A DNA stretch of 64,000 nt from the IMG/VR virus record IMGVR_UViG_3300021559_000316; one strand, given 5' to 3'. Positions 2,036 to 61,539 of the stretch are shown piece by piece. The translations under genes and the position numbers were made by a program. Within the stretch, counting starts at the first letter, position 1, and each line of letters begins with the position of its first letter. The stretch comes from an uncultured virus (IMG/VR IMGVR_UViG_3300021559_000316). Its lineage: Duplodnaviria; Heunggongvirae; Uroviricota; Caudoviricetes. The notes under the pieces were generated by a model. That model saw only the letters and a list, made by a program, of their open reading frames with translations. It was not told the origin of the DNA and made no database searches.

Positions 2036-3061
2036 GTGGCCCGATCAACGACCTGTTTGCTCTGCGATGCAGAGCTGGAAGCCCTGCCCGACGGGCTACA
2101 GAAGCACCCGGAGGTCGGTGATTGCGACGTGCGGCTCACCGACGCCTGGGGCGTCGCGGTGCCGGTGCCCGAGACCAACGGCGTCGAGCACGATCCGCCG
2201 CAGACGATCGACATCAAGATGTTCCCGCTCGTCGACGAGGTGCTCGACGCGATCTTCGGCGAACGTGGGCTCCGTCGCCTCGGCGGCATGTCGAGCGGCA
2301 AGGGCTGGTCGATGTTCACGACGTACCAGCGGTGCCCGTACCTCTACCAGCAGAAGTACCTCCGTGATCGCAGGCCGCCGATGTTCGTCGAGTCACCGAG
2401 CCTGGCGATCGGCACGCTCGTGCACGTGTTCCTCGCGGTCTTCTACGCGCGGATGGTGATCGGCGACTACCCGTTCACGCCCGAGGAGATCTGCGATCGC
2501 ACCAAGGCCAAGGCGAATCCCGAGTTCGTCGACGAGGCGTGGCGCGTGTTCTCGGCCTACCGCGCGTTCTACAGCATCGAGAAGATCCTGCCGCTCGCGA
2601 TCGAGTACGACCTTCGCGATCCGCGCACCGGCGAGAGCTGCCGCTTCGACCTCATCGCCTACTTCGAAGAGAGCATCGCCGGCCGCCCGCCGGGGACCTA
2701 CGTGATGGAGCACAAGACCGCGAGCCGGTTCGATCAGGACACGCTCGAAGGCTGGGTCGTCGACGGTGAAGTCTTGGGTCAAGTCGCGCTGTGGGAGCGA
2801 CTCGGGCTCGACCTTCGCTTCGGCAAGCTCCGCGGCGTGATCGTGAACCTGCTCGGCAAGCACAAGGTGCCGCAGTTTCACCGCACGCTCGTCGCGCCCG
2901 AGTCGTGGCAGATCAAAAGCCACCTCGACGATCTCAAGCGCTGGGAGGGCCTCATCCAGCTCTCGAAGTCGACCGGTTCGTTTCCTCGTGCTCGCACCGG
3001 CTGCATCGGCCGCTACGGGCGCTGCTCGTTCTTTGATTCCTGTGCCACGGGAGAAGAGTGA
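2036..3061 (+). CDS. Cas4/RecB-like PD-(D/E)xK exonuclease with probable Fe-S cysteine staple
   Basis: CPYLYQQKY, GTLVH, RFD...EHKT nuclease core, C-terminal C-x4-C-x5-C-like cluster (CIGRYGRCSFFDSC). Confidence 0.85.
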   Translation: MARSTTCLLCDAELEALPDGLQKHPEVGDCDVRLTDAWGVAVPVPETNGVEHDPPQTIDIKMFPLVDEVLDAIFGERGLRRLGGMSSGKGWSMFTTYQRCPYLYQQKYLRDRRPPMFVESPSLAIGTLVHVFLAVFYARMVIGDYPFTPEEICDRTKAKANPEFVDEAWRVFSAYRAFYSIEKILPLAIEYDLRDPRTGESCRFDLIAYFEESIAGRPPGTYVMEHKTASRFDQDTLEGWVVDGEVLGQVALWERLGLDLRFGKLRGVIVNLLGKHKVPQFHRTLVAPESWQIKSHLDDLKRWEGLIQLSKSTGSFPRARTGCIGRYGRCSFFDSCATGEE

Positions 3062-3231
3062 TGACCGTTTTGCAAGAGGCGCGTCAATACTTGTATCGAT
3101 ATGGGACGATCACCGACACGACGATCGAGCCCGTCGACTTGATCCGGGACCTCGTCGGCGCGTTGGAACGTGCGCTCGCTGCCAGGAAGAAACCGACGGC
3201 GAGGAGCAAACTGAGCGCGCTCGGACGATGA
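3061..3231 (+). CDS. small hypothetical protein (56 aa, MTVLQEARQYLYRYG...)
   Basis: Read from the sequence; TGATG overlap upstream and ATGA overlap downstream. Confidence 0.55.
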   Translation: MTVLQEARQYLYRYGTITDTTIEPVDLIRDLVGALERALAARKKPTARSKLSALGR

Positions 3232-3548
3232 TCCTCGTCGACGAAGATGTCCTGAACGATCCTGTCTTCCACGCGACGCGGGAGATGGAGACCGATCCGA
3301 CGTTCGTGCCGTGCCGCGACGAGTGCTGCACGGTCCAAGCGCTTCATCGCGAGCACGAGGTCAAGGTCGGTCGCGGTCAGCGGTTCAAGCGTTGCCCGAT
3401 GTGCAACAGCGAGATCATCCGCATCCCCCGAAAGCGCGCCTACTGTTCGAGCCCGATCTGCTCGTGGCGGATCGTCAACCAATCAACGAAGGGAACGAAA
3501 CGTGCGAGAGATCAATCTGAGTCAGCCGACGAACGTCCTGCCCCGTAA
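3228..3548 (+). CDS. small zinc-finger protein
   Basis: CRDECC...LHREH and CPMC...CSSPIC motifs; ATG coupled to the upstream stop. Confidence 0.6.
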   Translation: MILVDEDVLNDPVFHATREMETDPTFVPCRDECCTVQALHREHEVKVGRGQRFKRCPMCNSEIIRIPRKRAYCSSPICSWRIVNQSTKGTKRARDQSESADERPAP

Positions 3549-4392
3549 CACGTTCCTCGTCTACGGAGATTCGCGAACGGGCAAGACGACGTGGGCCGCG
3601 ACGTTCCCGCGTCCGGTGTTCTTCTCGGACGCCACTGAAGGCGGGTGGGACTCGATCGCGAACATGTCCGACGATCAGCTGTTCGAGCCGGGCGTGAAGC
3701 CGCTCGTATGGGCTATTGAAAAAATGGACGATATGGTGACGGCGCGCGCGAAAGCCGAACCGCTCATCGCGTCGGGTCGCATCCAGACGATCGTCACCGA
3801 CAGCATCTCGTACTACTGCGATCTGTTCCTCAACTTCCTCCTGATGGCGCAGGCGAAGAAGGACACGCGATCGGCGTACGGCGACCTCGGCAACCACCTC
3901 CGCGATCTTCGCGTGAAGACCCACATGCTGCCGGTCAACGTGGTGTGGCTCGCTCTCGCGAAGCATCCCGACGACGTGTTCCCCGTCGGTGGGCCGATGA
4001 TCCCGGGCCAGCAGGCCGACAAGTTCATGGCCGGCGTGCACTACATCTTCCACTCGCGCGTTGATCAGCAGAAGCGCGGCCAGGAGCTTCTGCCACCAAC
4101 GTACGAGATGCGAACGAGGAAGTACCTCGGCTACATCGCCGGCAATCGCCTCGGTGGTCGCGCCAACCAGCTCCCCGATCCACTCGTCGGTGATTACCAG
4201 ACGCTCATCGAATCACTGGGCTACAACGCCGACGAGATCCGGAAGAACCTGCCGAAGATCGTTGCCAACGGCTCCGCACCTGCTCCGCAAGCACCGGCCG
4301 TCGTTCCGCAGCCGCGTCCCGTCGTTCAAGCACGTCCGCAAGTCGCTGTCGTGCCTCAGCGCAGGCCCGTGGTGGTGCCGCCGAAGAGCTAG
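3502..4392 (+). CDS. Sak4/AAA_24-like phage recombination ATPase
   Basis: Walker A YGDSRTGKT, DATEGG, Walker B IVTDSIS; lies between nuclease and SSB-like gene. Confidence 0.85.
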   Translation: MREINLSQPTNVLPRNTFLVYGDSRTGKTTWAATFPRPVFFSDATEGGWDSIANMSDDQLFEPGVKPLVWAIEKMDDMVTARAKAEPLIASGRIQTIVTDSISYYCDLFLNFLLMAQAKKDTRSAYGDLGNHLRDLRVKTHMLPVNVVWLALAKHPDDVFPVGGPMIPGQQADKFMAGVHYIFHSRVDQQKRGQELLPPTYEMRTRKYLGYIAGNRLGGRANQLPDPLVGDYQTLIESLGYNADEIRKNLPKIVANGSAPAPQAPAVVPQPRPVVQARPQVAVVPQRRPVVVPPKS

Positions 4393-5789: not shown

Positions 5790-8700
5790 GTGGTCGCCGC
5801 GGCGTCGGTATCGCTTCCGCTCCTGCGCGGAACGACCGAAGGCGCCAAGTGCAACGAGTGCCCGTTCTCGATCGGTGGTCGTGCGGCGCGCCCGGTGTGC
5901 TCCGAGCATCCCGCAGAGCCAGCGTGGATCCTCGTCGGTGAGGGTCCCGGCTCGACGGAGGTCGTACTAAATCGTCCTTGGGTCGGGCCCTCGGGCGAGG
6001 TCGTCAACAAGCTGCTCGCGAAGATCGGCCGCGATCGTCGTGAGATTTTCGTCGGCAACGCAACGCTCTGCCAGCCGCCTCGTGGATCGCCAGATCACAT
6101 GCGCGACCTCGCGGCGAAGGCGTGCAAGCCTCGGCTCGACCAAGAGCTGGCGCAGTGGCCCGGTGTTCCCGTGCTCACGCTCGGGGCGGTCGCTGCGCGC
6201 GCTCTGATTCCCCAGGAAACGCTCGACGCGATCGACCCGCCGACGGTCCCCAAGTCGAAGAAACGTAGCCAGAAGGAACGCCAGCGCGCGGAGGCGCGAA
6301 CGCTCGCGCGAGAGGTCCGCGGGCGCGTCAAGGCGATCGAGCAGATCGCCAAGCGCCGGCTCAAGGACAAGATCAAGACGCGCCGTGAGCAGCTAGTCGT
6401 CTCGTGCACGACGCCGCTGCCGGGCACGCCGTATCGGAATCGGAAGCGGCCGACCGTGAGGCAGCTCGACCAGATGATCGAGGACGCGCGCGAGATCCCC
6501 AAGATGAAGCTCCTCGCCGATCGCGAAGCGATCACCGAGTACGAGCTGGGCGACAAGGAACGCGAGATGGCTGCGCAGTACGCGGCGGCGCACCCCAAGC
6601 CGAAGAAGCCGCCCAAGCCCAGGAAGGTGAAGATCACCGACATCATGGGCACGTGCTTCGACGTCGACGTCGACGGCACCGGCGTTCTTCGGCCGCTGAT
6701 CCCGGCGCTGCATCCGGCGGCGCTCTTGCGTGGCGGCGGCGCGACGATCGGTGGCACGCACACGCCCGATCTGGCGTTCGTCAACCTCATCTACGACGCC
6801 GGCAAGGTGAACGCGCTAGCGCAGGGCCACGACATCCGCCTGAAGGTCAACATCGAGACCGAGGTCGTCGACGAGGAGCGCACCGGGCAGCTCTTGCGCG
6901 ACATCATCTACGAAGGCATCGCCGAGGGGATGGTCGCGATCGACCTGGAGACCTACGTCGACGATCCCGAACGCCACCACGCGCTCATGGCGTACGTCGC
7001 ACGGATCAAGGCGATTGGCCTCGCGACCTCGCAGCGTTCGGTGTCGATCCTGTGGAGCAAGACGCCCGCGTGGGCGCAGACGCTCCTGGCGATCGTGCTC
7101 GCGCATCGCGACGTCACCAAGACGTTCCACAACGGCATCTACGATCGCACCGTGCTCACCGCGAACGGCTTTCTGATCGACGGCCCGTGGGAGGACACGC
7201 TGCTCGCGCACCACGCTGCGTTCCCGGGGCTCGCGCATCGCCTGCAGGTGGTGACGTCGCAGTTCTTCGCGACGGCCCCTTGGAAGTGCTTGCGTCGTGA
7301 CGTCGAGATCTTGTTACCGGATCGATCGACCGTGAACATCCGAGACTTCGTGCGCAGGCGGCTACCGGAGGTGTTATCGCTCGAAGACGGGAAGATCGTT
7401 CCGAAGAGGGTGGTCGGGTGGCACGAAGTTCACGTCCCAGGGCAGGAATGGTTATCGATTCGAACGGAGCGCTGCGACAAGAAATACACCCGCGGCCTTG
7501 TTGTAACGCCAGACCATCGCGTGATGACGCAGCGTGGGCTGGTCGAGGCGGATCGACTTGTACCGGGCGATGGCATTGCGATCGACGAGCCTAAGTTCTC
7601 AGAGGATCAGATCTCGGCTGCTGTTGGTACGCTGCTGGGTGACTCGTCGTTGTACGTCAGCCGTGTCTTCCACAAGCGTCCTTGGGACGCGCCACGCGCT
7701 AGCATTCGTGGCGGTCACACGAACAAGGGTCTTCGTGATTGTAAGGTAGCCGCATTGCCACTAGGGACCGTGTGCGGCACCGAACCGGCAGTAGTTCGAC
7801 AGAGCGCCGACGTTACGATCAACGCTGCGGAGTTTTTCCATTACGGGACGAAGTGGGCGTTCCAGTACATGGAGATCGCCAAGCTCGTATACGACGAGAG
7901 CTGGCGTCGCCGTATCAAGCCGGAAGCGCTATCGATGCTCGGGCGCCGTGGGCTTGCCATGATGTACATGGACGACGGAACGCTTCGTCAGGATGGCGCG
8001 TACATCGGTGTCGGGTTCGCCACGAATGGTTTCCTCGATGAAGATGTTGAGCTGTTCACGCAGTGGATTCGTGAGCGTTATGGAGCGGCGACCATCTATC
8101 GGAGCGCGGGGCCTTACTGTCAGCTCTCGGCCGCGGCGTCTCGTAACATGCTCGAAGATCTGCGCGGCTACATCCACCCGTCGAGCCGCTACAAGACGAT
8201 CTACGACGACGCCTACCGAGAGGTTCAAGACGGCGCTGGCGTGTACCACGCCAAGATCACGTCCGTCGATGTTGTGGCCAGGAACGAGAAGCGGCCGGCA
8301 TTGTTCGACTACAGGTATTGCTTGTCCGTCGAGGACACGAAGCTGTTCTTCACGAACTACGGCCTCGTGTCCAACAGCGAGTTCCGAAACGCCGAGGAAA
8401 CGCCCGAGGGGCTCACCGTCTACAACGCCAAGGACACCGGCGCCACGCACGCGCTGCTTCCGCAGCTCCAGTTCTGGGTCAAGAAGACCAAGACCGAGAA
8501 GATCTACGCGCTCGACAAGAAAATGGCCGAGATCGCCTCGAAGATGCACCTAGCGGGCATGCCCGTCAGCCGGGAGATCAACTCCGAGCTGCTCAAGACT
8601 TTCTCGAAGAACGTCGCTGACAGTCGTCGAGCCGTCGAGCACGTCGCCGAGGATCTGAAGCTGCACGAGAAGCTCCTCCACTACCTTGCTCTGCAGCAGG

Positions 8701-9908
8701 CGCAGAAACGCCGTAAGAACGACAGCGAGGTGCTCAACGACCGCTACAGCCAGCGGCTCGACGAGATCAAGTACGACACGAAGTGGAAGTGGAAGATCGG
8801 CGCTGGCAAGCACATCGCCGCGTTGCTTCAAGCGCTCGGTGTTCAGCTCCACCAGGTCACCGCCACCGGGCAGATCTCGACGAAGAAGGACGTTCTCGAA
8901 TCGCTCGTCAACGTCCCGGTCATCCGCGACATTCTAACATTCCGCGAGAACGACAAGTTGTTGACCACATTCGTGTGGCAGCTGTTCGACCGCGAGGACT
9001 CGTCGGGCAACACGATCCAGTACGGCTACGCCGACGAGAACGATCGCGTGCACCCGATCTGGGTCGTGCACAAGATCACCGGCCGCTGGGCAAGCAGCGA
9101 GCCGGTCGTCTCGAACGTGCCGAAGGAGAAGTTCAAGAAGCTCGCCGACGGGACCAAGCAGAGCATCCGGCCCAACCTCCGCCGGCAGATCGTTGCTCCG
9201 CCCGGCCGTATCTTCGTCGGCTTCGACTTCGGCCAGCTCGAAGCGCGGGTGATCGCGCTCATCTCGGGCGATCCGTTCTTGTGTCAGGTGTTCGCCGACG
9301 GGCGCGACATCCACACCGAGTGCGCTCGCGTGGTGTTCACCGGCTTCGACAAGCTTGAGAAGTACGAGCAGAAGCAGGCGCGCGACGTGACGAAAAATTT
9401 TGAGTATGGCTGTTTCTACGGCGGCTCTACGGAGACCTTGTGGAAGACGGTGCTCAAGGCCGGGCACAACATCAAGCAGGTCGATGTTGCCAAGGCGGTC
9501 GCTCTCCTCATGCAGCGTATGCCCGGCGTCGTCGCGTGGCAGCGAAGCAGCGTCGCCGAGGCGTGCCAGCCGCCGTATGAGATCCGCGACTTCCTCTACG
9601 GTCGGCGCCGCACGTTCCCGCTCGGTCAGGTGGAAGCCACCGAAGCGATGAACTTCGGCGTCCAAGCGGCCGGCGCGTCGATCATGAACACCGGCATGGC
9701 GCGAATGGACGACGTACTCCCCGAGTACAAAGAGGCATTCGCGATCGCGCAGATTCACGACGCGGCCGTGTTCGAATGCTGGGAAGACGACGCACCGAAG
9801 CTTGCCGAGGATGTCACGCGCTGCTTCACGCAGAGCTACGAGCGCGACGGCCGGACGATTCCCTTCCCAATTGATGCAAAGATCGGGAAGAGCTGGGCTG
9901 ATGTCTAG
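5790..9908 (+). CDS. polA: family A DNA polymerase with N-terminal family-4 UDG domain, 3'-5' exonuclease and intein
   Basis: UDG: CNEC, LVGEGPG, PWVGPSG, HPAALLR. Exo: DLETY, HNGIYD, YNAKD. Pol: motif A DFGQLEAR, B KNFEYGCFYG, C IHDA. Confidence 0.95.
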   Translation: MVAAASVSLPLLRGTTEGAKCNECPFSIGGRAARPVCSEHPAEPAWILVGEGPGSTEVVLNRPWVGPSGEVVNKLLAKIGRDRREIFVGNATLCQPPRGSPDHMRDLAAKACKPRLDQELAQWPGVPVLTLGAVAARALIPQETLDAIDPPTVPKSKKRSQKERQRAEARTLAREVRGRVKAIEQIAKRRLKDKIKTRREQLVVSCTTPLPGTPYRNRKRPTVRQLDQMIEDAREIPKMKLLADREAITEYELGDKEREMAAQYAAAHPKPKKPPKPRKVKITDIMGTCFDVDVDGTGVLRPLIPALHPAALLRGGGATIGGTHTPDLAFVNLIYDAGKVNALAQGHDIRLKVNIETEVVDEERTGQLLRDIIYEGIAEGMVAIDLETYVDDPERHHALMAYVARIKAIGLATSQRSVSILWSKTPAWAQTLLAIVLAHRDVTKTFHNGIYDRTVLTANGFLIDGPWEDTLLAHHAAFPGLAHRLQVVTSQFFATAPWKCLRRDVEILLPDRSTVNIRDFVRRRLPEVLSLEDGKIVPKRVVGWHEVHVPGQEWLSIRTERCDKKYTRGLVVTPDHRVMTQRGLVEADRLVPGDGIAIDEPKFSEDQISAAVGTLLGDSSLYVSRVFHKRPWDAPRASIRGGHTNKGLRDCKVAALPLGTVCGTEPAVVRQSADVTINAAEFFHYGTKWAFQYMEIAKLVYDESWRRRIKPEALSMLGRRGLAMMYMDDGTLRQDGAYIGVGFATNGFLDEDVELFTQWIRERYGAATIYRSAGPYCQLSAAASRNMLEDLRGYIHPSSRYKTIYDDAYREVQDGAGVYHAKITSVDVVARNEKRPALFDYRYCLSVEDTKLFFTNYGLVSNSEFRNAEETPEGLTVYNAKDTGATHALLPQLQFWVKKTKTEKIYALDKKMAEIASKMHLAGMPVSREINSELLKTFSKNVADSRRAVEHVAEDLKLHEKLLHYLALQQAQKRRKNDSEVLNDRYSQRLDEIKYDTKWKWKIGAGKHIAALLQALGVQLHQVTATGQISTKKDVLESLVNVPVIRDILTFRENDKLLTTFVWQLFDREDSSGNTIQYGYADENDRVHPIWVVHKITGRWASSEPVVSNVPKEKFKKLADGTKQSIRPNLRRQIVAPPGRIFVGFDFGQLEARVIALISGDPFLCQVFADGRDIHTECARVVFTGFDKLEKYEQKQARDVTKNFEYGCFYGGSTETLWKTVLKAGHNIKQVDVAKAVALLMQRMPGVVAWQRSSVAEACQPPYEIRDFLYGRRRTFPLGQVEATEAMNFGVQAAGASIMNTGMARMDDVLPEYKEAFAIAQIHDAAVFECWEDDAPKLAEDVTRCFTQSYERDGRTIPFPIDAKIGKSWADV
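7287..8375 (+). mobile_element. class 1 intein with LAGLIDADG homing endonuclease (363 aa) in the PolA exonuclease domain
   Basis: Begins CLRRD after PWK; block B TPDHRV; GTLLGDSS and MYMDDGT; ends GLVSN before Ser(+1); codon usage visibly more AT-rich. Confidence 0.9.
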
Positions 9909-33461: not shown

Positions 33462-33923
33462 ATGAGCGACGTGCAATTGACTGACGACGAGATCGAGGCT
33501 GCGCGGGCGTTGTGCAAGGCAGCGACGCCGGGACCGTGGAAGCCCTGTGAGGCGCAGCCGGACGCGAAATGCCCGTGCCAGCTCGTGTGGTCAATTCCGG
33601 CCGACGTGCCGGTGATGCGAGGCTACGGCGACGACGGCGAGAATGGGCGAGAGGCCGACGTGTTGTTCGCCGCCGCCGCCCGCACGCTCGTGCCGAAGCT
33701 GATCGCGGAGGTGGAGCGGCTGAACAAGCTGTGTCGCACGCTCGAAGGTATCGGGCCGGTGTTCGTCGAGCGCGACGCCCTGCGCGCCGAGGTCGAGCGC
33801 ATGCGGCCGATCTATGACTTGGCCGTGAAGGTCGCGGACTGCGCCGAGGACTACGACACAAGCGCCGTCGATGCGCTCATCTGCGCCGTCGATGACGCAC
33901 TCGCGAAGGAGTCCACGCCGTGA
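33462..33923 (+). CDS. Ead/Ea22-like protein
   Basis: KAATPGPW...DVLFAAAARTLVPKLIAEVERL, then the ERMRPxY...AVDDALAKE module. Confidence 0.75.
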   Translation: MSDVQLTDDEIEAARALCKAATPGPWKPCEAQPDAKCPCQLVWSIPADVPVMRGYGDDGENGREADVLFAAAARTLVPKLIAEVERLNKLCRTLEGIGPVFVERDALRAEVERMRPIYDLAVKVADCAEDYDTSAVDALICAVDDALAKESTP

Positions 33924-54864: not shown

Positions 54865-55112
54865 GCGACGCTGACTTCATGGAATGCGCGGCGTGCCGCG
54901 CCAAGCCCGGAGCGCCGATGCTGTGCCAGGCATGCCTGCACAACCGGCGGCTGGTCGGCGAGCTACGCGCCGAGATCGAGCGCATGCGACCGGTGTACGA
55001 GATTGCATGCGGGCGCTGGCGAACCGGCCATGCGGCGCAGGTGGGATCGTGGCCGTTTCAGCGAGAGCTTGCAGGCGCCGTCGATGCCGCGCTGGCGAAA
55101 GAGCCGCGATGA
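54861..55112 (+). CDS. ERMRP-family paralog
   Basis: CAAC...LRAEIERMRPVYE...AVDAALAKEPR. Confidence 0.75.
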   Translation: MSDADFMECAACRAKPGAPMLCQACLHNRRLVGELRAEIERMRPVYEIACGRWRTGHAAQVGSWPFQRELAGAVDAALAKEPR

Positions 55113-55405
55113 GCGACGCGCTGTGCGACATCCACGACCGCCGCGACACGCGCGGGCAATGCTCGTGTTCGCTGATCGTCAGCGAGCTGCGCGCTGAGGT
55201 GGTGAAGCTCAAGGCAGAGAAGGCGATGCTCGCCGAGACCATGAATGAGGCAGTAAAGCGCTACCTCGCTGACGAGAAGGAGAATGAGCGCATGCGGCCG
55301 GTGTACGAGATCGCGTGCGGACGCTGGCGAACCGGTCACGCAGCACAAGTAGGAAGTTGGCCGTTTCAGCAGGCGCTCGCCGCCGCCGTCGACGCCGCGC
55401 TCGCC
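54978..55405 (+). repeat. 120-bp diverged direct repeat (54978-55097 and 55286-55405)
   Basis: Encodes ERMRPVYEIACGRWRTGHAAQVGSWPFQ..LA.AVDAALA, 37/40 aa identical, mostly synonymous differences. Confidence 0.9.
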
Positions 55406-55540
55406 AGCGAGACGAAGCCGCCGTTCAACGGTTCGCCGCATCACTTCGTCGGTGAGCACGACTGCGAGATCTGCGGCGAAGGATATTGCCACTACCACCA
55501 CGCGCCGAATCACGCCAGCGAAGCGAAGGAGCCGAAGTAA
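55109..55540 (+). CDS. ERMRP-family paralog
   Basis: KLKAEKAMLAETMN plus ERMRPVYE module; ends SEAKEPK. Confidence 0.75.
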   Translation: MSDALCDIHDRRDTRGQCSCSLIVSELRAEVVKLKAEKAMLAETMNEAVKRYLADEKENERMRPVYEIACGRWRTGHAAQVGSWPFQQALAAAVDAALASETKPPFNGSPHHFVGEHDCEICGEGYCHYHHAPNHASEAKEPK

Positions 55541-55776
55541 TGCTGATCTATACGCTCTGGCACGAAGGCGATCCAGGCGACGTGCCCTGGCTCGCCGACG
55601 CCGTCGACGAATACACGGTCGACAACAACGGTGAATTCCCGCCGGACTACGCGAATAAGCGCGTCGACGCCATGCACCGTGAGCTGATCATCGACGTACC
55701 ACTGACAGCGGTGCAAGCGCTGTTTGATTCACCCACCGTCAAAGCGCGGGTCGTCGTCGCGAAGGAACCAAAGTGA
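55540..55776 (+). CDS. hypothetical protein
   Basis: TAATG coupling; ends AKEPK. Confidence 0.7.
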   Translation: MLIYTLWHEGDPGDVPWLADAVDEYTVDNNGEFPPDYANKRVDAMHRELIIDVPLTAVQALFDSPTVKARVVVAKEPK

Positions 55777-56138
55777 CTGACGATGATCCCATTCATCTGG
55801 CACGCACCGTCATTGACAAGTACGGCGCCGCCGCTGACAAGCCAAGCGCTCGCTTGGCGAAGGCGCTGCTCGACGGTGCGCACGAGCGCGACGCCCTGCG
55901 CGCCGAGATCGAGCGACTGCACCGAACTGACGAGATGGACCATCGCGGTGTGCTGGTCGACAAGCTTCGCGCCGAAGTCGAGCGCATGCGACCGGTGGTG
56001 CACGCCGCGAGGCTCTGGTTCAAGGTCCACGGCGAGAATCCGGGCGTCCACCCCGATTCCAACTGCCGCCACGCCGACAACCAACTTGGCGTGTTCGTCG
56101 ATCGCTATGAGACCAGCGAAGCGAAGGAGACGCGATGA
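55773..56138 (+). CDS. ERMRP-family paralog
   Basis: ERDALRAEIERL...LRAEVERMRPVV; ends SEAKETR. Confidence 0.75.
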   Translation: MTDDDPIHLARTVIDKYGAAADKPSARLAKALLDGAHERDALRAEIERLHRTDEMDHRGVLVDKLRAEVERMRPVVHAARLWFKVHGENPGVHPDSNCRHADNQLGVFVDRYETSEAKETR

Positions 56139-56458
56139 AGGAGATCAAAGATTGGCGCGCGCGGTGCGAGAGCATGCGTCGCTGGCAAGGTGACAGCCAC
56201 GGTGATCCGTTGACTTGCGACGAGGCGATCACGCTGCTCGACGAGGTGGAGCGGTTGCGAGCCGAGGGTGACGCCCTGCGCACCCAGATGAAGAAGCTCA
56301 AAGCGGAGAAGTCAATGCTCGCCGAAACGATGAACGACATGCGGCCGGTGTTCGAGGCGGCGAAGGCCGTTCGTGACGATCTACATTCAGTGCGAGGATT
56401 CTGGATCGTCCGGTTGCGCGACGCCGTCGATGCCGCGATTGCGAAGGGGCAGCGATGA
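56135..56458 (+). CDS. ERMRP-family paralog
   Basis: KLKAEKSMLAETMNDMRPVFE...AVDAAIAKG. Confidence 0.75.
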   Translation: MKEIKDWRARCESMRRWQGDSHGDPLTCDEAITLLDEVERLRAEGDALRTQMKKLKAEKSMLAETMNDMRPVFEAAKAVRDDLHSVRGFWIVRLRDAVDAAIAKGQR

Positions 56459-56967
56459 GCATCGATCTCGATGATCCGCCCGAAGCCGCGCGGCCGTACG
56501 TCGATCTATACGAGCGCGTGAAACAGGAGCGCGACGCCCTGCGCGCGGCGAACGCACGCACGCGCACGTGCGCGCGCTGCCAATCGACCGGCGCCGGCAA
56601 CATCGATTTCCACTGCGCGACGTGCTGGCGGAACCTCGAAGCGGAGCGCGACGCCCTGCGCGTCGAGAACGAGAAGCTACGCGGCGCCGTGCTGAGGCCG
56701 CTCGACACGAGCGACGTGATCGCCGCACTGCACGAGGGCCATGCCGAGCGGAAGGTCGCCGAGCACGACAACGCGTGGACGTCGCTGATGCGCCAACGCG
56801 ACGAGGCGCGCGCTGAAGTCAAGCGCATGCAGCCGGTGTACGCGTGGGCCAAATCATTCCGACGCGTCGTGCCGAACCATGGCGACTGGCCGGACGATGA
56901 GCAGCAGGAGGCGCTCGACAATCTCTACGCGAGCATCGACGGCGCGATCGCGAAAGAGCCGCCGTGA
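56455..56967 (+). CDS. ERMRP-family paralog
   Basis: ERDALR x2, AEVKRMQPVY...IDGAIAKEPP. Confidence 0.75.
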   Translation: MSIDLDDPPEAARPYVDLYERVKQERDALRAANARTRTCARCQSTGAGNIDFHCATCWRNLEAERDALRVENEKLRGAVLRPLDTSDVIAALHEGHAERKVAEHDNAWTSLMRQRDEARAEVKRMQPVYAWAKSFRRVVPNHGDWPDDEQQEALDNLYASIDGAIAKEPP

Positions 56968-57638
56968 GCGACGACGACGATCCCGAGTACCACATCGCGT
57001 ACGACGTCGATCAATGCAAGGTCGGCTGCATCCTGATCCAGGCAGCGCTCGGCTGCGACGTACCGCGCGATCTCTTCTTCGATTACTTCGGTACGGGCGA
57101 GGCGTGGACGGTCAACGCGAGGGACTGCAAAATCTACCCGATCCGCCACAGCCAGCTGCCGCTGCTCGCCGCGCGCACCGACTTCACAAGGCGTGATGAC
57201 GTATGACTTCGGTATTACGCAAGTCATACTTTATGAAGACTCCGTGACGAAGATTTCCTTCCACACCGTGGCGCTTGGGACCCGGGTCGTGGGTCACCCA
57301 CCCTCGTACATGTCGATACTTGGGGCTCCGAGCATCGGCACGCCGCGCGCATCTGGAGAGGGCATGCTGCGCTCCTACGCGACCATCAACTTCCTCTTCC
57401 GCGGCGGTCAGATCGTCTTCGAGGCGATCTGGCGGCCGTCGTACGCCCACAAGGCGCACCGCAGCGCGTACTGCCTCGGCCGCTTCCCGACCAAGGCCGC
57501 CGCGATCGCCGCGTGCGAGCGCGTCGCCACGCACGAGCACTCGACCCTCACGATCATCGCCGGCGATCAGCCGCGCGGCGTCCGCCGGCGCGGATCGACG
57601 ATCACGCGCGCCGAGGCCGTCTCCGGGACGGTGTGGTC

Positions 57639-58055
57639 GTGAGCGCGCTGTCGATGTTGCTCGGCGCCGCATTCGTCGTGATCGGCGTGCTCGCCGCCGC
57701 CCTCGCCGACCGCATCCGCGGCCTGCGCGTCGCGCGACCGCAAGATCGGGCCACGCGCTCCGAGCCGATCGCCGCGCCGGAGATCTCCCACGCGCGGGGA
57801 TCGCGGGGCAAGGCGCCCGAAGATCGCATCGCGATCCCGATCATCTCGCAGGGGGCGACGATCATCTCGCAGGGACCAACGACCGATCGCGAGAAGACGA
57901 TGGGCACCGACGTCGTCGCCGCGCTCGTCGGCGCCGGCTACAAGAAGTACGTCGCGCACAGCGCGGCGTGGAGCTGCGACGCGATCGAGCGCGCGTCGGT
58001 CGAAGCGTGGACCCGCGCGGCGCTCCGCCGCGCCTCGCAGGGAGTGTCGCCGTGA
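57639..58055 (+). CDS. N-terminal TM helix fused to a RuvA C-terminal (domain III)-like domain
   Basis: MLLGAAFVVIGVLAAALA; DVVAALVGAGYKK...VEAWTRAALR; GTGA-coupled to ruvB. Confidence 0.7.
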   Translation: MSALSMLLGAAFVVIGVLAAALADRIRGLRVARPQDRATRSEPIAAPEISHARGSRGKAPEDRIAIPIISQGATIISQGPTTDREKTMGTDVVAALVGAGYKKYVAHSAAWSCDAIERASVEAWTRAALRRASQGVSP

Positions 58056-59053
58056 AGACCGATCAAGATCTCCGTCCCACGTCCCTCGACGACTTCGTCA
58101 GCCAGCATCAGACGATCGCGACGCTCCGGCGCGCGATCACCGCCGCGCGCCGCGCCGGCCGCCCGGTCGGGCACCTGCTGTTCGCCGGAATGGCGGGATG
58201 CGGCAAGACGTCGCTCGCGGCCGTCGTCGCCGCGGAGATGGGCGCGAAGTTCGTCGCGACGACCGGCCCGGCAATCGAGCACCGCGGCGAGCTGGCCGCG
58301 CTGCTCACCGGCCTCGGCGCCGGCGACGTGCTCTTCGTCGACGAGATCCACGGCCTGGACAAGAAGCTCCAGGAGATCTTGTACTCGGCGATGGAAGACG
58401 GTGTCGTCGATCTCGCCGCCGGCAAGAAGATGATCCGCATGCAGCTGCCGGCGTTCACGCTGATCGGCGCCACGACGCGGACACACCTCCTCACCGGCCC
58501 GCTCCGCGATCGGTTCGCGTACACCTTCCAGATCGGCCACTACGACGACGTCGATCTCCAGGCGATCGTGGGCCGCTCCGCCCGCCGCCTCGGCCTGCCG
58601 ATGGACGACGACGCGGCCGCGGAAATCGGTCGCCGATCGCGCGGCACGCCGCGCGTCGCCAACCGCCTCGTGCGCGCGGCGCGCGACTTCGTCGAGTCGG
58701 TCGGCGCCACGCGCGTGACCTCGATCGTCGCGGCGGCGGCCCTTGACGCGATCGGCGTCGACGATCTCGGCCTCGACACCACTGATCGGACCTACCTCGC
58801 GATCGTCGCCGAGGCTGGCGCGCCGATCGGCCTGGAGGCCATCGCGTCCGCGATGGGCACCGAGCGCGGCACGATCGAGGACGTGATCGAGCCGCACCTC
58901 GTCGCGCGCGGCCTCGTGCGCCGCACGTCGCGCGGGCGCGTCGCAACCGCCGCCGGCATCCAGCACCTCCAGCCGCGCGCGGATCGCTGGGCGCCGAAGA
59001 GCCGGATGATCAGCGAAGGCAACGATGTCATCGACGCGGAGCTGGTCTCGTGA
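58052..59053 (+). CDS. ruvB: Holliday junction branch migration ATPase RuvB
   Basis: LRPTSLDDFVSQ, GMAGCGKTS, LFVDEIH, LYSAMED, FTLIGATTR, PLRDRF, SRGTPRVAN, IEPHL...RTSRGR. Confidence 0.95.
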   Translation: MKTDQDLRPTSLDDFVSQHQTIATLRRAITAARRAGRPVGHLLFAGMAGCGKTSLAAVVAAEMGAKFVATTGPAIEHRGELAALLTGLGAGDVLFVDEIHGLDKKLQEILYSAMEDGVVDLAAGKKMIRMQLPAFTLIGATTRTHLLTGPLRDRFAYTFQIGHYDDVDLQAIVGRSARRLGLPMDDDAAAEIGRRSRGTPRVANRLVRAARDFVESVGATRVTSIVAAAALDAIGVDDLGLDTTDRTYLAIVAEAGAPIGLEAIASAMGTERGTIEDVIEPHLVARGLVRRTSRGRVATAAGIQHLQPRADRWAPKSRMISEGNDVIDAELVS

Positions 59054-61539
59054 GCGACAAGGCCGACTGGTTCGACGTCTCGCGAAAGGGCCTCGCCAAG
59101 CTGATCGAGCGGCGCGGCAAGATCTGGCTCCTGCACGAGCTGATCGCCAACGCGTGGGATGCCGACGACGTCACGACTGTCGAGGTGGTGCTCGAGCCCG
59201 AGGAGGGCCGGCCGCTCGTGACGGTGCTCGTGCGCGACGACGCGCCGGACGGATTCGCGCTCGATGTTGCTACGCCGATTCCGACTCCCAGTGGATGGTC
59301 CACCATGGGACAAGTTCAGGTCGGCGACCTGATCTACGACGATGGCGGAAAGATCCGTCACGTCATCGCCAAGACCGACGTGATGTATGATCGGCCCTGT
59401 TACGAAGTCGTTTTTGCCGATGGAGAAGTGCTCGTCGCAGACGCGAATCACCTTTGGACCGTCACAGACGACAACGATCGCGCAAGGAATCGGCCCGCCC
59501 GCATCTTGACAACAGCGCAGCTGGCTGAACGCGTAGGTCAAGGGCGCCAAGACCGCAGACATCTATCAACAGGGATACAAGCAGTCCTCGAAACACCCTC
59601 CCTCGCGCTACCAGTTGACCCGTACTTGCTGGGCTACTGGCTCGGAGACGGCACCAAACGCACCAGTGTGATAGCTGTTGCAAAACGTGATGCCGAACAT
59701 CTTCGAGATCGAGCGGAACGTGCCGGTTATAAATTTCGACATAACGGAAGCTACTCAGCCTCGCTGCACGGTCTACTCGAAGATCTCCGCACGCTCGGCG
59801 TCCTAGACGAAAAGCACATCCCTCAACTTTACTTGCGCGGCGGGGTTCAACAGCGCTTAGAGCTGCTGCAAGGCTTGGTTGATTCCGATGGCTGCTCATC
59901 CTCCGTTCAACACAGTCGCCGGGCAGAATTCGTCAACACCAACCTGAAGCTCATCGAAGGTTTCGAGGAGTTGGTGCAATCGCTCGGCGGAAGAATAACT
60001 AGACGACTGAGAGGGCGCGCCGGGAAGGTATATCCCGGCATCAAAGGCGGTAAGCCGATCGTACAACGCAAGGACGTTTATCGCGTCTCGTTCACTGTTC
60101 CGTATCTTGCCTTCGCCCTTCCACGCAAGGCTGCGCAGTTTTATCCAGCGACAGAGCGTCAGCGTCGACGCATGATCAAAGCTGTTCGACCGTGCGCTTC
60201 ACGCCCTGTTGTCTGCATCACGACGGATGCGCCGTCGGGGCAGTTTCTTTGCGGTCGATCGATGGTTGCAACACACAACTGCGATATCACGCACGCATGG
60301 ACCCTGTTCGCGGAATCGAACCGCAAGGGCCAGGCGCAGAAAAGAGGCAGATTCGCGATCGGTGAAAAACTTGTGCTCGCGCTGTGCGAGGAGGCGTCGA
60401 TCATCTCGACCAAGGGCGCGGTGCTGTTCGACGGCCGCGGACGATCGAGCATGCGGGCCCGCCGCGATCGCGGCACCGAGTTCCAGGGCATCGCGCGGAT
60501 CACGCGCGCCGAGCTGGCCGAGATCCGCGAGGGGCTCGCCAGGATGATCCCGCCGCCGCACGTCGCGACCTTCGTCGACGGCAAGAGGCTGCCGACGCGG
60601 GATCCGATCAAGACGATCGAGGCGACGCTGCCGACCGAGATCGCGGACGAAGACGGCCTCATCCGGCGCACGGCGCGGAAGTGCACCGTTCACGTCCACG
60701 AGACGCTGCCGGGCGAGACGGGGACGCTCTACGAGATGGGCGTGCCGATAACCGAGACCGGCGATCGATGGAGTGTGGACATCCAACAGAAAGTCCCACT
60801 CAGTATGGAGCGCGACAACGTCACACCCGCGTACCTGCGCGCCATCCGCACGCTGGTCGTCAACGCGCTCCACGACAAGCTCACGGAGGAAGACGCGAGC
60901 ACGTCGCTCGTGAACGACGCGCTGGCCGATGAGAGGGCCACGCCCGAGGCCGTGTCGAGCGCGATCGACGCCAAGTACGGCAAGAAGCGCGCGGTGTTCG
61001 ATCCGAGTGATCCCGAGGCGAATATGAACCTCGTCTCGCAGGGCTACACGCTCATCAAGGGCGGACAGCTCACGCGATCGCAATGGGACAACGTCAGGAA
61101 GCACGGCGCCGCGCAGCCGGCCGGTCAGATCGCACCGACCAAGAAGGCGCTGTTCTCGCCGGACGGCGAGGACAACTGGGTGCCCGAGGAAAAGTGGACG
61201 CCGGCGATCCGCGCCGTCGTGGCGTACGCTCGCGCCATCTGCCGCGATCTCCTCGGCGCGTCCACGCGCGTCGGTGTCCTGTCGGACATCAAGGTCAGCT
61301 GGGCCGCGTGCTTTGGCAGCAGCCAGGGCCTCGTGTTCAACCTGGGGCGCCTCGGCCACGACTTCTTCGAGGCGTGCGAGCGCGGCCCGACCGATCAGCT
61401 GAATCAGCTGATCATCCACGAGCTGGGTCACGACGCCGCACCGAACCACCTCGACGAGAGCTACCACGAGGCGCTGTGCGCACTCGGTGCCAAGCTCGCG
61501 CGACTCGCCCTCACCAAGCCGGAGATGTTCAGGTGGTGA
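59050..61539 (+). CDS. GHKL (HATPase_c) ATPase with intein and C-terminal HExxH zincin-like motif
   Basis: ELIANAWDA, DDAPDGF|CDITHA, RGRFAIGEK, GTEF; C-terminal IIHELGH...H. Confidence 0.85.
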   Translation: MSDKADWFDVSRKGLAKLIERRGKIWLLHELIANAWDADDVTTVEVVLEPEEGRPLVTVLVRDDAPDGFALDVATPIPTPSGWSTMGQVQVGDLIYDDGGKIRHVIAKTDVMYDRPCYEVVFADGEVLVADANHLWTVTDDNDRARNRPARILTTAQLAERVGQGRQDRRHLSTGIQAVLETPSLALPVDPYLLGYWLGDGTKRTSVIAVAKRDAEHLRDRAERAGYKFRHNGSYSASLHGLLEDLRTLGVLDEKHIPQLYLRGGVQQRLELLQGLVDSDGCSSSVQHSRRAEFVNTNLKLIEGFEELVQSLGGRITRRLRGRAGKVYPGIKGGKPIVQRKDVYRVSFTVPYLAFALPRKAAQFYPATERQRRRMIKAVRPCASRPVVCITTDAPSGQFLCGRSMVATHNCDITHAWTLFAESNRKGQAQKRGRFAIGEKLVLALCEEASIISTKGAVLFDGRGRSSMRARRDRGTEFQGIARITRAELAEIREGLARMIPPPHVATFVDGKRLPTRDPIKTIEATLPTEIADEDGLIRRTARKCTVHVHETLPGETGTLYEMGVPITETGDRWSVDIQQKVPLSMERDNVTPAYLRAIRTLVVNALHDKLTEEDASTSLVNDALADERATPEAVSSAIDAKYGKKRAVFDPSDPEANMNLVSQGYTLIKGGQLTRSQWDNVRKHGAAQPAGQIAPTKKALFSPDGEDNWVPEEKWTPAIRAVVAYARAICRDLLGASTRVGVLSDIKVSWAACFGSSQGLVFNLGRLGHDFFEACERGPTDQLNQLIIHELGHDAAPNHLDESYHEALCALGAKLARLALTKPEMFRW
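59257..60279 (+). mobile_element. class 3 (Ala1, WCT) intein with LAGLIDADG endonuclease (341 aa)
   Basis: Starts ALDVATPIPTPSGW; block B HLW; block F VCI; ends VATHN before Cys(+1); LGYWLGDG and LQGLVDSDG; more AT-rich. Confidence 0.9.

Follow-up and report, generated by a model that had tools for sequence, protein, structure and literature searches.

The gene pair

We analyzed 64,000 nucleotides (nt) of DNA from the uncultured virus record IMGVR_UViG_3300021559_000316 (Caudoviricetes) in IMG/VR; this whole stretch, called the window below, has a G+C content of 65% and appears to be part of a large phage-like element from soil. On its plus strand lies a pair of genes, the first of which, gene A (57639..58055, + strand, 138 amino acids [aa]), encodes a hydrophobic helix, a linker, and a helical bundle resembling domain III of RuvA, and the second (58052..59053, + strand, 333 aa) a complete RuvB. 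A first-pass annotation of the same DNA had described gene A as a transmembrane helix, a disordered linker with a duplicated IISQG, and a RuvA-CTD-like helical domain without OB or HhH domains, coupled to a full RuvB with a beta-hairpin that looked shorter than usual, in a window without ruvC. It had suggested that RuvB serves as a membrane-tethered pump for double-stranded DNA, in entry, segregation, or packaging, or that the small protein sequesters host RuvB. Our analyses bear out this anatomy, the transmembrane helix as a prediction, and the combination of helix, linker, and domain III coupled to a full RuvB proved to be a conserved family trait.

Gene A starts with a GTG inside the stop of the preceding open reading frame (ORF), and its own stop overlaps the GTG start of RuvB (58052) by 4 nt. 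Four plus-strand ORFs are linked by such 4-nt start/stop overlaps (57193-57642, 57639-58055, 58052-59053, and 59050-61539). Over the bases of gene A, the G+C content at third codon positions (GC3) is 0.91 in the gene A frame versus 0.59 in the RuvB frame, so that the gene A frame is the coding one and a long open frame at 57275-59053 is an artifact of high G+C. Homologs of gene A, described below, also support the gene call.

The N-terminal helix and linker of gene A

Residues 2-31 (57642..57731, + strand) form one helix in the AlphaFold2 model and are predicted to be a single membrane-spanning helix followed by the basic stretch DRIRGLR. The top 19-residue Kyte-Doolittle window of the protein begins at residue 4 and averages 2.54, and lysine plus arginine (K+R) residues flank the helix asymmetrically, with none before it and five after. 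The same pattern runs through the family: all 44 aligned members have one hydrophobic segment of at least 1.89 and none has a second, and the mean K+R count over the 44 relatives is 0.18 in the 15 residues before the helix versus 4.4 in the 15 after. Under the positive-inside rule, the K+R bias predicts a cytoplasmic-membrane anchor with the N-terminus outside and the C-terminus inside. Mean column identity over the 44 sequences is 0.87 in the N-terminal helix, 0.81 in domain III, and 0.38 in the linker. The helix is more conserved than a passive anchor would need to be; this and its pattern of Gly and Ala suggest that such helices pack against one another within the membrane.

A helix this conserved (0.87) and this rich in Gly and Ala could also be one that mediates oligomerization or partner binding, in which case gene A would be a soluble mini-RuvA responsible for loading the phage RuvB and activating it in branch migration during phage recombination, and the window does hold a recombination module comprising a Sak4-like protein, an exonuclease, and an SSB-like protein. 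We consider this rather unlikely, given that the single segment of at least 1.89 in 44 of 44 members lies over the usual membrane threshold of 1.6, that K+R rises from 0.18 before the helix to 4.4 after it, that a diverged subfamily (below) retains both the hydrophobic helix and the basic stretch, and that Pfam identifies no DNA-binding domain in gene A.

The linker (residues 32-81; 57732..57881, + strand) has no secondary structure in the AlphaFold2 model, and its predicted local distance difference test (pLDDT) values are 46-56 as 10-residue block means over residues 31-80. It contains a 21-nt tandem duplication seen at the protein level as the repeated IISQG, with exact 16-nt copies at 57838-57853 and 57859-57874, spaced 21 nt apart. 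The duplication is private to the window copy, relatives showing an IPVVE-type motif at the same place.

A RuvA domain III without the remainder of RuvA

The C-terminal part of gene A (residues 82-133; 57882..58037, + strand) is a three-helix bundle like RuvA domain III. Pfam RuvA_C (PF07499) matches residues 90-131 with an E value of 0.0021 and 18.9 bits, below the 24-bit cut-off, and in a comparison of the gene A family profile with PDB sequences the best six of eight matches were RuvA domain III (E 0.13-0.45). With Foldseek against the PDB, all of the first 16 rows listed were RuvA; the match to 7pbl_G had a target-normalized template modeling score of 0.83, a root-mean-square deviation (rmsd) of 1.8 Å over 47 columns, 36% identity, a probability of 1.00, and an E value of 0.22. 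VIA-align, which is independent of Foldseek and covered 48,161 representative chains, likewise placed RuvA domain III in its top four positions (Z 7.2, 7.2, 6.5, and 6.4), with an rmsd of 1.6-2.1 Å over 48-50 residues and identities of 22-35% in three of the four and 19% in the other. Z values below 8 are common among small helical domains, and the fold assignment therefore relies on ranking and identity rather than on Z alone. A tblastn search with domain III of a Kofleriaceae RuvA also found its match within the gene A bundle (40% identity, E 0.045).

Counterparts of the other two RuvA domains were not found. Pfam gives RuvA_C only for gene A and the AlphaFold2 model has no strands, leaving no OB-fold domain (RuvA_N); no HhH family matches gene A at a Pfam E value of up to 0.1, residues 32-81 being modeled as disordered; and tblastn with residues 1-140 of the Kofleriaceae RuvA (domains I-II) gave a best E value of 2.3 in the 174,852 bases of the window and related loci. 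Lacking two of the three domains that define RuvA, the gene A product does not count as a RuvA and is instead a domain III homolog on a new scaffold.

A complete RuvB with a shortened hairpin

The RuvB of the window aligns over its full extent with solved RuvBs (E 7e-82). It has the Pfam domains RuvB_N (1.1e-50), AAA_lid_4 (1.5e-22), and RuvB_C (1.8e-21), and exceeds the NCBIfam equivalog cut-offs of both NF000868 (362.5 bits versus 282) and TIGR00635 (321 versus 299.05). Walker B, sensor 1, the arginine finger, and sensor 2 align with those of solved RuvBs, and the invariant RuvB columns are represented by K52, D97, E98, T141-T142, R154, and R201/R205. Walker A reads GMAGCGKTS, versus GPPGLGKTS/T in cellular RuvBs. 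Judged by these alignments the catalytic motifs are intact, and by each sequence test save hairpin length the protein is a member of the RuvB family.

That difference lies in the presensor-1 beta-hairpin (residues 120-132; 58409..58447, + strand), where the tip changes from GKGPxAR to GK----K/R and is 4 residues shorter than in solved RuvBs. In an alignment with 13 cellular RuvBs, the window hairpin is 4 residues shorter than 12 of them, and the thirteenth is 2 residues shorter. A 30-residue hairpin segment is found in all 40 relatives of the group (9 RuvBs linked to gene A, 22 from databases, and 9 from IMG/VR), and a 34-residue segment in 12 of the 13 cellular RuvBs and in the canonical RuvB of a Kofleriaceae metagenome-assembled genome (MAG). 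The window RuvB is 56-66% identical to its nearest relatives versus 49-54% to cellular RuvBs. In a quick maximum-likelihood tree built from 45 rows, a single change accounts for all 31 rows with the short hairpin (Shimodaira-Hasegawa-like approximate likelihood ratio support 89), and none of 500 label shuffles gave a number as low. The shortening is specific to this group. Separately, in one branch the RuvB ORFs (loci L001/L002, L004, and L006) carry a conserved N-terminal extension of ~80 residues ahead of RuvB_N, which in L002 begins at residue 76 of 392.

Modeled docking of gene A on RuvB

According to two cryo-electron microscopy reports (PMC9477746, PMC10272136), RuvA domain III binds a hydrophobic composite surface of RuvB made up of helix alpha3 and the presensor-1 hairpin. 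We modeled the complex from the RuvB alignment together with an alignment of gene A residues 80-138. The score was 0.65 in three of three runs, versus 0.00 for the best of three controls; the runs had at least 98% of contacts in common, and the pLDDT of the partner was at least 86. A score of 0.65 was attained by 116 of 157 solved complexes and by 2 of 215 mismatched pairs, counts that apply only roughly here because custom alignments were used. The modeled interface sets RuvB residues 77-87 and 121-131 against gene A residues 91-101 and 121-133, and is the same alpha3 and presensor-1 hairpin surface as in the account of the contact in PMC9477746. The model thus gives the expected interface and scores above the controls, but the pass may echo solved complexes; as such complexes have already been solved, it indicates likeness and is no proof of binding by the window copy. 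In the model, domain III of gene A docks on the hairpin and helix alpha3 of its cognate RuvB.

Conservation of the pair

Gene A-centered loci were collected from metagenomes (12) and species genomes (3), and a RuvB lies downstream of gene A in 9 of these 15. Three of the six loci without RuvB extend less than 150 nt past gene A, and the others extend 825 nt (L008), 1.3 kb (L015, with other ORFs in that interval), and 3.1 kb (L005). In L005 a Hint/LAGLIDADG-type ORF (8407-9567) sits directly after gene A at the expected place of RuvB, and in L004 one (2468-3079) lies between gene A and RuvB; homing elements seem to target the spot directly after gene A.

Approached from the motor, the RuvB clade includes nine IMG/VR viral contigs, two of them near-identical (L029/L030). 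Eight of the nine encode a domain-III protein upstream of RuvB (family hidden Markov model [HMM], E 6e-23 to 4e-10); in L027 neither the family HMM nor a Pfam scan of the ORFs found a domain-III gene upstream. The synteny of a domain-III gene with ruvB thus holds from either side. The N-terminal helix of this IMG/VR subfamily is diverged: in the seven proteins examined (L030, the near-duplicate of L029, being omitted) it is a hydrophobic, Gly/Ala/Ser-rich helix followed by a basic stretch, and five of six proteins scanned give sub-threshold RuvA_C matches (E 6e-4 to 0.014). A conserved ORF of ~300 aa is present between the domain-III gene and RuvB in this subfamily (L026 8506-9597, L028 ~8920-9834, L029 8775-9689, and L031 ~2830-3822). 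These ORFs have 30-81% mutual identity and only weak coiled-coil-type Pfam matches, and could represent a third component in the IMG/VR branch.

No conserved third partner, RuvA core, or resolvase was identified by Pfam among the neighbors of the pair in L002, L004, L005, L006, L007, L011, and L014. The neighbors vary, and include Ser/Thr kinases, NADAR, DUF7448, methylases, integrases, and a sigma factor. Genes for Ser/Thr protein kinases occur a few kb from the pair in L002 (8099-9328), L006 (12696-14327), and L014 (6717-8969); there is no kinase among the 75 window ORFs scanned. Those 75 ORFs also lack RuvC, RusA, and RuvA core matches in Pfam, the window being part of a longer contig, and the best tblastn match for RuvC had an E value of 1.0. 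No junction-binding RuvA or resolvase was found in the window or in the 15 gene A-centered loci, all of them parts of contigs.

Beyond this clade, 40 IMG/VR contigs (L034-L073) encode more distant RuvB-like ATPases with 24-43% identity and hairpin segments of 22-39 residues. The 117 ORFs upstream of L027 and of 38 of the 40 distant RuvB-like genes, two near-duplicate loci being omitted, had no RuvA_C or RuvA_N match at an E value of up to 0.01. An HMM restricted to domain III gave no match ahead of the RuvB-like gene in any of the 40 distant loci, and its best E value outside the domain-III genes of the RuvB clade was 0.21. RuvB-like motors that lack every part of RuvA thus seem to be common in phages.

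The gene A family

A word-seeded search recovered 180 homologs of gene A at an E value of up to 0.01. Lengths among the 120 listed span 106-181 aa, and a precomputed PF07499 match is recorded for 17. An HMM search of 1.84 billion representatives found 291 clusters (50% identity) at an E value of up to 0.001, of which 212 were at or below 1e-10, and the 150 clusters listed are 76-182 aa long with no full-length RuvA among them. A search among longer proteins gave a single one, in which the family-like part follows an unrelated stretch of ~110 residues that we read as an over-called start. The metagenome protein P0123 (182 aa) has the N-terminal helix followed by two tandem copies of domain III, recalling the two adjacent domain IIIs on neighboring RuvB subunits described in PMC9477746.

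This distribution bears on whether gene A might be a decayed, functionless remnant of a full ruvA, with homologs to match, as might be supposed from the fact that domain III alone remains and that its Pfam match is under the cut-off. We regard this as scarcely credible. The 291 clusters share the same short architecture, the one longer protein is attributed to its start, GC3 is 0.91, the N-terminal helix and domain III are strongly conserved, and tblastn with RuvA domains I-II finds nothing in the 174,852 bases. Family size, conservation, GC3, and the tblastn null all contradict decay, and the similarity to RuvA_C is present rather than missing.

No family for gene A was found in PHROGs, NCBIfam, or PADLOC. 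INPHARED phages contained no gene A relative and only RuvBs of less than 60% identity, mostly unannotated records. Scans of IMG/VR with gene A alone, RuvB alone, or the gene A alignment returned nothing, the alignment of the RuvB clade alone succeeding. The Atlas cluster nearest gene A (match score 0.76, a lead only) has 55 members, and those bearing a taxon are all viruses.

Host association

The contigs listed in the clusters of gene A and of RuvB are 178,797 and 91,744 nt long, respectively. All three species-genome loci belong to Haliangiales or Kofleriaceae MAGs; source labels assign one RuvB of the clade to Polyangia and one gene A homolog to Gaiellaceae. In the Kofleriaceae MAG (9.9 Mb), the pair is located on a 457-kb contig beside an integrase gene and a kinase gene, and farther out the contig carries ordinary genes of a chromosome. 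At another place in this MAG lies a canonical ruvC-ruvA-ruvB operon, whose RuvB has the long hairpin; the pair therefore supplements the host system and does not replace it.

A canonical ruvC-ruvA-ruvB in the one host-type genome examined is also a possible target. Domain III being a RuvB-docking module, a membrane-bound copy could act as a decoy that captures the host RuvB and disables host RuvAB during infection. Such sequestration is disfavored, and we think it quite improbable: gene A travels with a RuvB of its own, to which it is translationally coupled in the window, the partnered RuvB group has a distinct hairpin length, and the complex model points to docking on the cognate RuvB.

A proposed membrane-held RuvB

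In the RuvAB system, domain III recruits RuvB, promotes its nucleotide exchange and activates its ATPase, and links it to the core formed by RuvA and the junction. We think it probable, with considerable room for doubt, that gene A brings the RuvB of the element to the cytoplasmic membrane, activates it, and keeps it there. The N-terminal helix would insert in the cytoplasmic membrane with the C-terminus inside, and the flexible linker of ~50 residues would bear the RuvA-domain-III-like bundle. On the co-translated RuvB, the bundle would dock where RuvA domain III does, namely on helix alpha3 and the presensor-1 hairpin, here shortened. RuvB hexamers would in this way be recruited, activated, and kept at the membrane and not at a Holliday junction bound by RuvA.

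Several observations weigh against a membrane-held RuvB of this kind. The membrane helix is called from hydropathy and charge bias only, and is very conserved for a mere anchor, so a protein-contact helix is possible; in the IMG/VR subfamily the best 19-residue windows reach only 1.40-1.75 and fall outside the N-terminal helix in one of seven proteins. As regards domain III, RuvA_C is under the Pfam cut-off in the window copy, the PDB profile matches have E values of only 0.13-0.45, a fold Z of ~7 is middling for a small helical domain, and the complex model may have passed from its memory of solved RuvA-RuvB structures. The pairing is also incomplete, since L005 and L015, each with more than 1 kb of downstream sequence, have no adjacent RuvB and L027 has no adjacent domain-III gene.

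If RuvB is held at the membrane by gene A, it is possible, and we advance this tentatively as a doubtful extension, that the fixed point for RuvB action is the membrane instead of the RuvA-junction core, so that a recombination motor becomes a two-protein, membrane-tethered pump for double-stranded DNA (dsDNA). In RuvAB, DNA is drawn out of the RuvA side and through the RuvB ring (PMC9477746), and by that geometry a membrane-held ring would draw DNA away from the membrane into the cytoplasm. Such an inward pull would suit the completion of genome entry, or the holding and segregation at the membrane of phage DNA under replication, but neither export nor packaging.

Other features of the window

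The ORF immediately upstream of gene A (57193..57642, + strand, 149 aa), whose stop overlaps the gene A start, is not conserved alongside the pair. Its single Pfam match is a marginal one to DUF2188 (E 0.099, 13.2 bits versus a 22-bit cut-off), it has no PHROG match, and tblastn found no homolog of it in L001-L012. Further upstream, small ORFs sharing a C-terminal motif (…ERMRPVYE…W…) occur at 54884-56967 (+ strand) and also at ~33759-33911; tblastn of 56455-56967 matched 54957-55106 (E 2.7e-4) and 33759-33911 (E 1.7e-5). They may be a family that was amplified locally, a short way upstream of the pair.

Downstream, an ORF of 829 aa (59050-61539, + strand), whose start overlaps the RuvB stop by 4 nt, has an intein-like insertion with LAGLIDADG_3 at residues 268-318. 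PHROG 'terminase large subunit' matches over residues 53-420 probably reflect inteins within those families. By eye, the flanks show a GHKL-ATPase-like motif on the N-terminal side and HExxH on the C-terminal side; neither Pfam nor NCBIfam has a family matching these flanks, and in the closest relative, L007, the ORF is not conserved beside RuvB. A family A DNA polymerase (5790-9908, + strand, 1372 aa) with an N-terminal UDG-superfamily domain has a LAGLIDADG_2 insertion at residues 610-765, which is the second intein/homing-endonuclease insertion of the window. The window also holds an SNF2-type helicase, a Sak4-like AAA_24 ATPase, a DUF669 SSB-like protein, an exonuclease, MT-A70 and C5 methyltransferases, two tyrosine integrases, and a Mom-like protein.

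Relation to known systems and implications

The pair resembles bacterial RuvA-RuvB (PDB 7pbl-7pbt, 7x7p, 7x7q, 1ixs, and 1ixr) in having a three-domain RuvB with intact motifs, a partner that carries a domain-III-type bundle on a flexible tether, the gene order of partner then RuvB, and, in the complex model, contact at the RuvB surface known from solved complexes (helix alpha3 plus presensor-1 hairpin). In contrast to RuvA, gene A has one hydrophobic helix in place of domains I-II (OB fold and HhH), which are responsible for tetramer formation and junction binding. The ~50-residue tether and the RuvB hairpin tip that is 4 residues shorter also set the pair apart, as do its lack of an adjacent ruvC and its presence on phage-like elements besides a host ruvCAB.

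FtsK/SpoIIIE are membrane-anchored hexameric dsDNA translocases with a long disordered linker, and the proposed arrangement is similar in design, with a membrane anchor, a disordered linker, and a hexameric dsDNA ring motor. There is no homology between them, however, the motor here being the AAA+ protein RuvB with no FtsK RecA-fold domain on gene A or RuvB according to Pfam, and the anchor would be a separate protein gripping the motor non-covalently. Full-text literature searches returned no account of a phage RuvB whose RuvA partner is membrane-anchored or reduced to domain III.

RuvA has two jobs in RuvAB, namely gripping the Holliday junction and regulating and anchoring RuvB through domain III. 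The gene A family splits these jobs, retaining the regulating and anchoring domain on a predicted membrane helix, while the motor has co-varied, and domain III thereby emerges as a portable RuvB-docking module. If the tether is real, the pair would allow a direct test of whether an immobile domain III is all that RuvB requires for pulling DNA, and would constitute a second, unrelated design of membrane-anchored dsDNA translocase. It would also suggest that large soil phages, probably those of Myxococcota, have a life-cycle step that has escaped notice.

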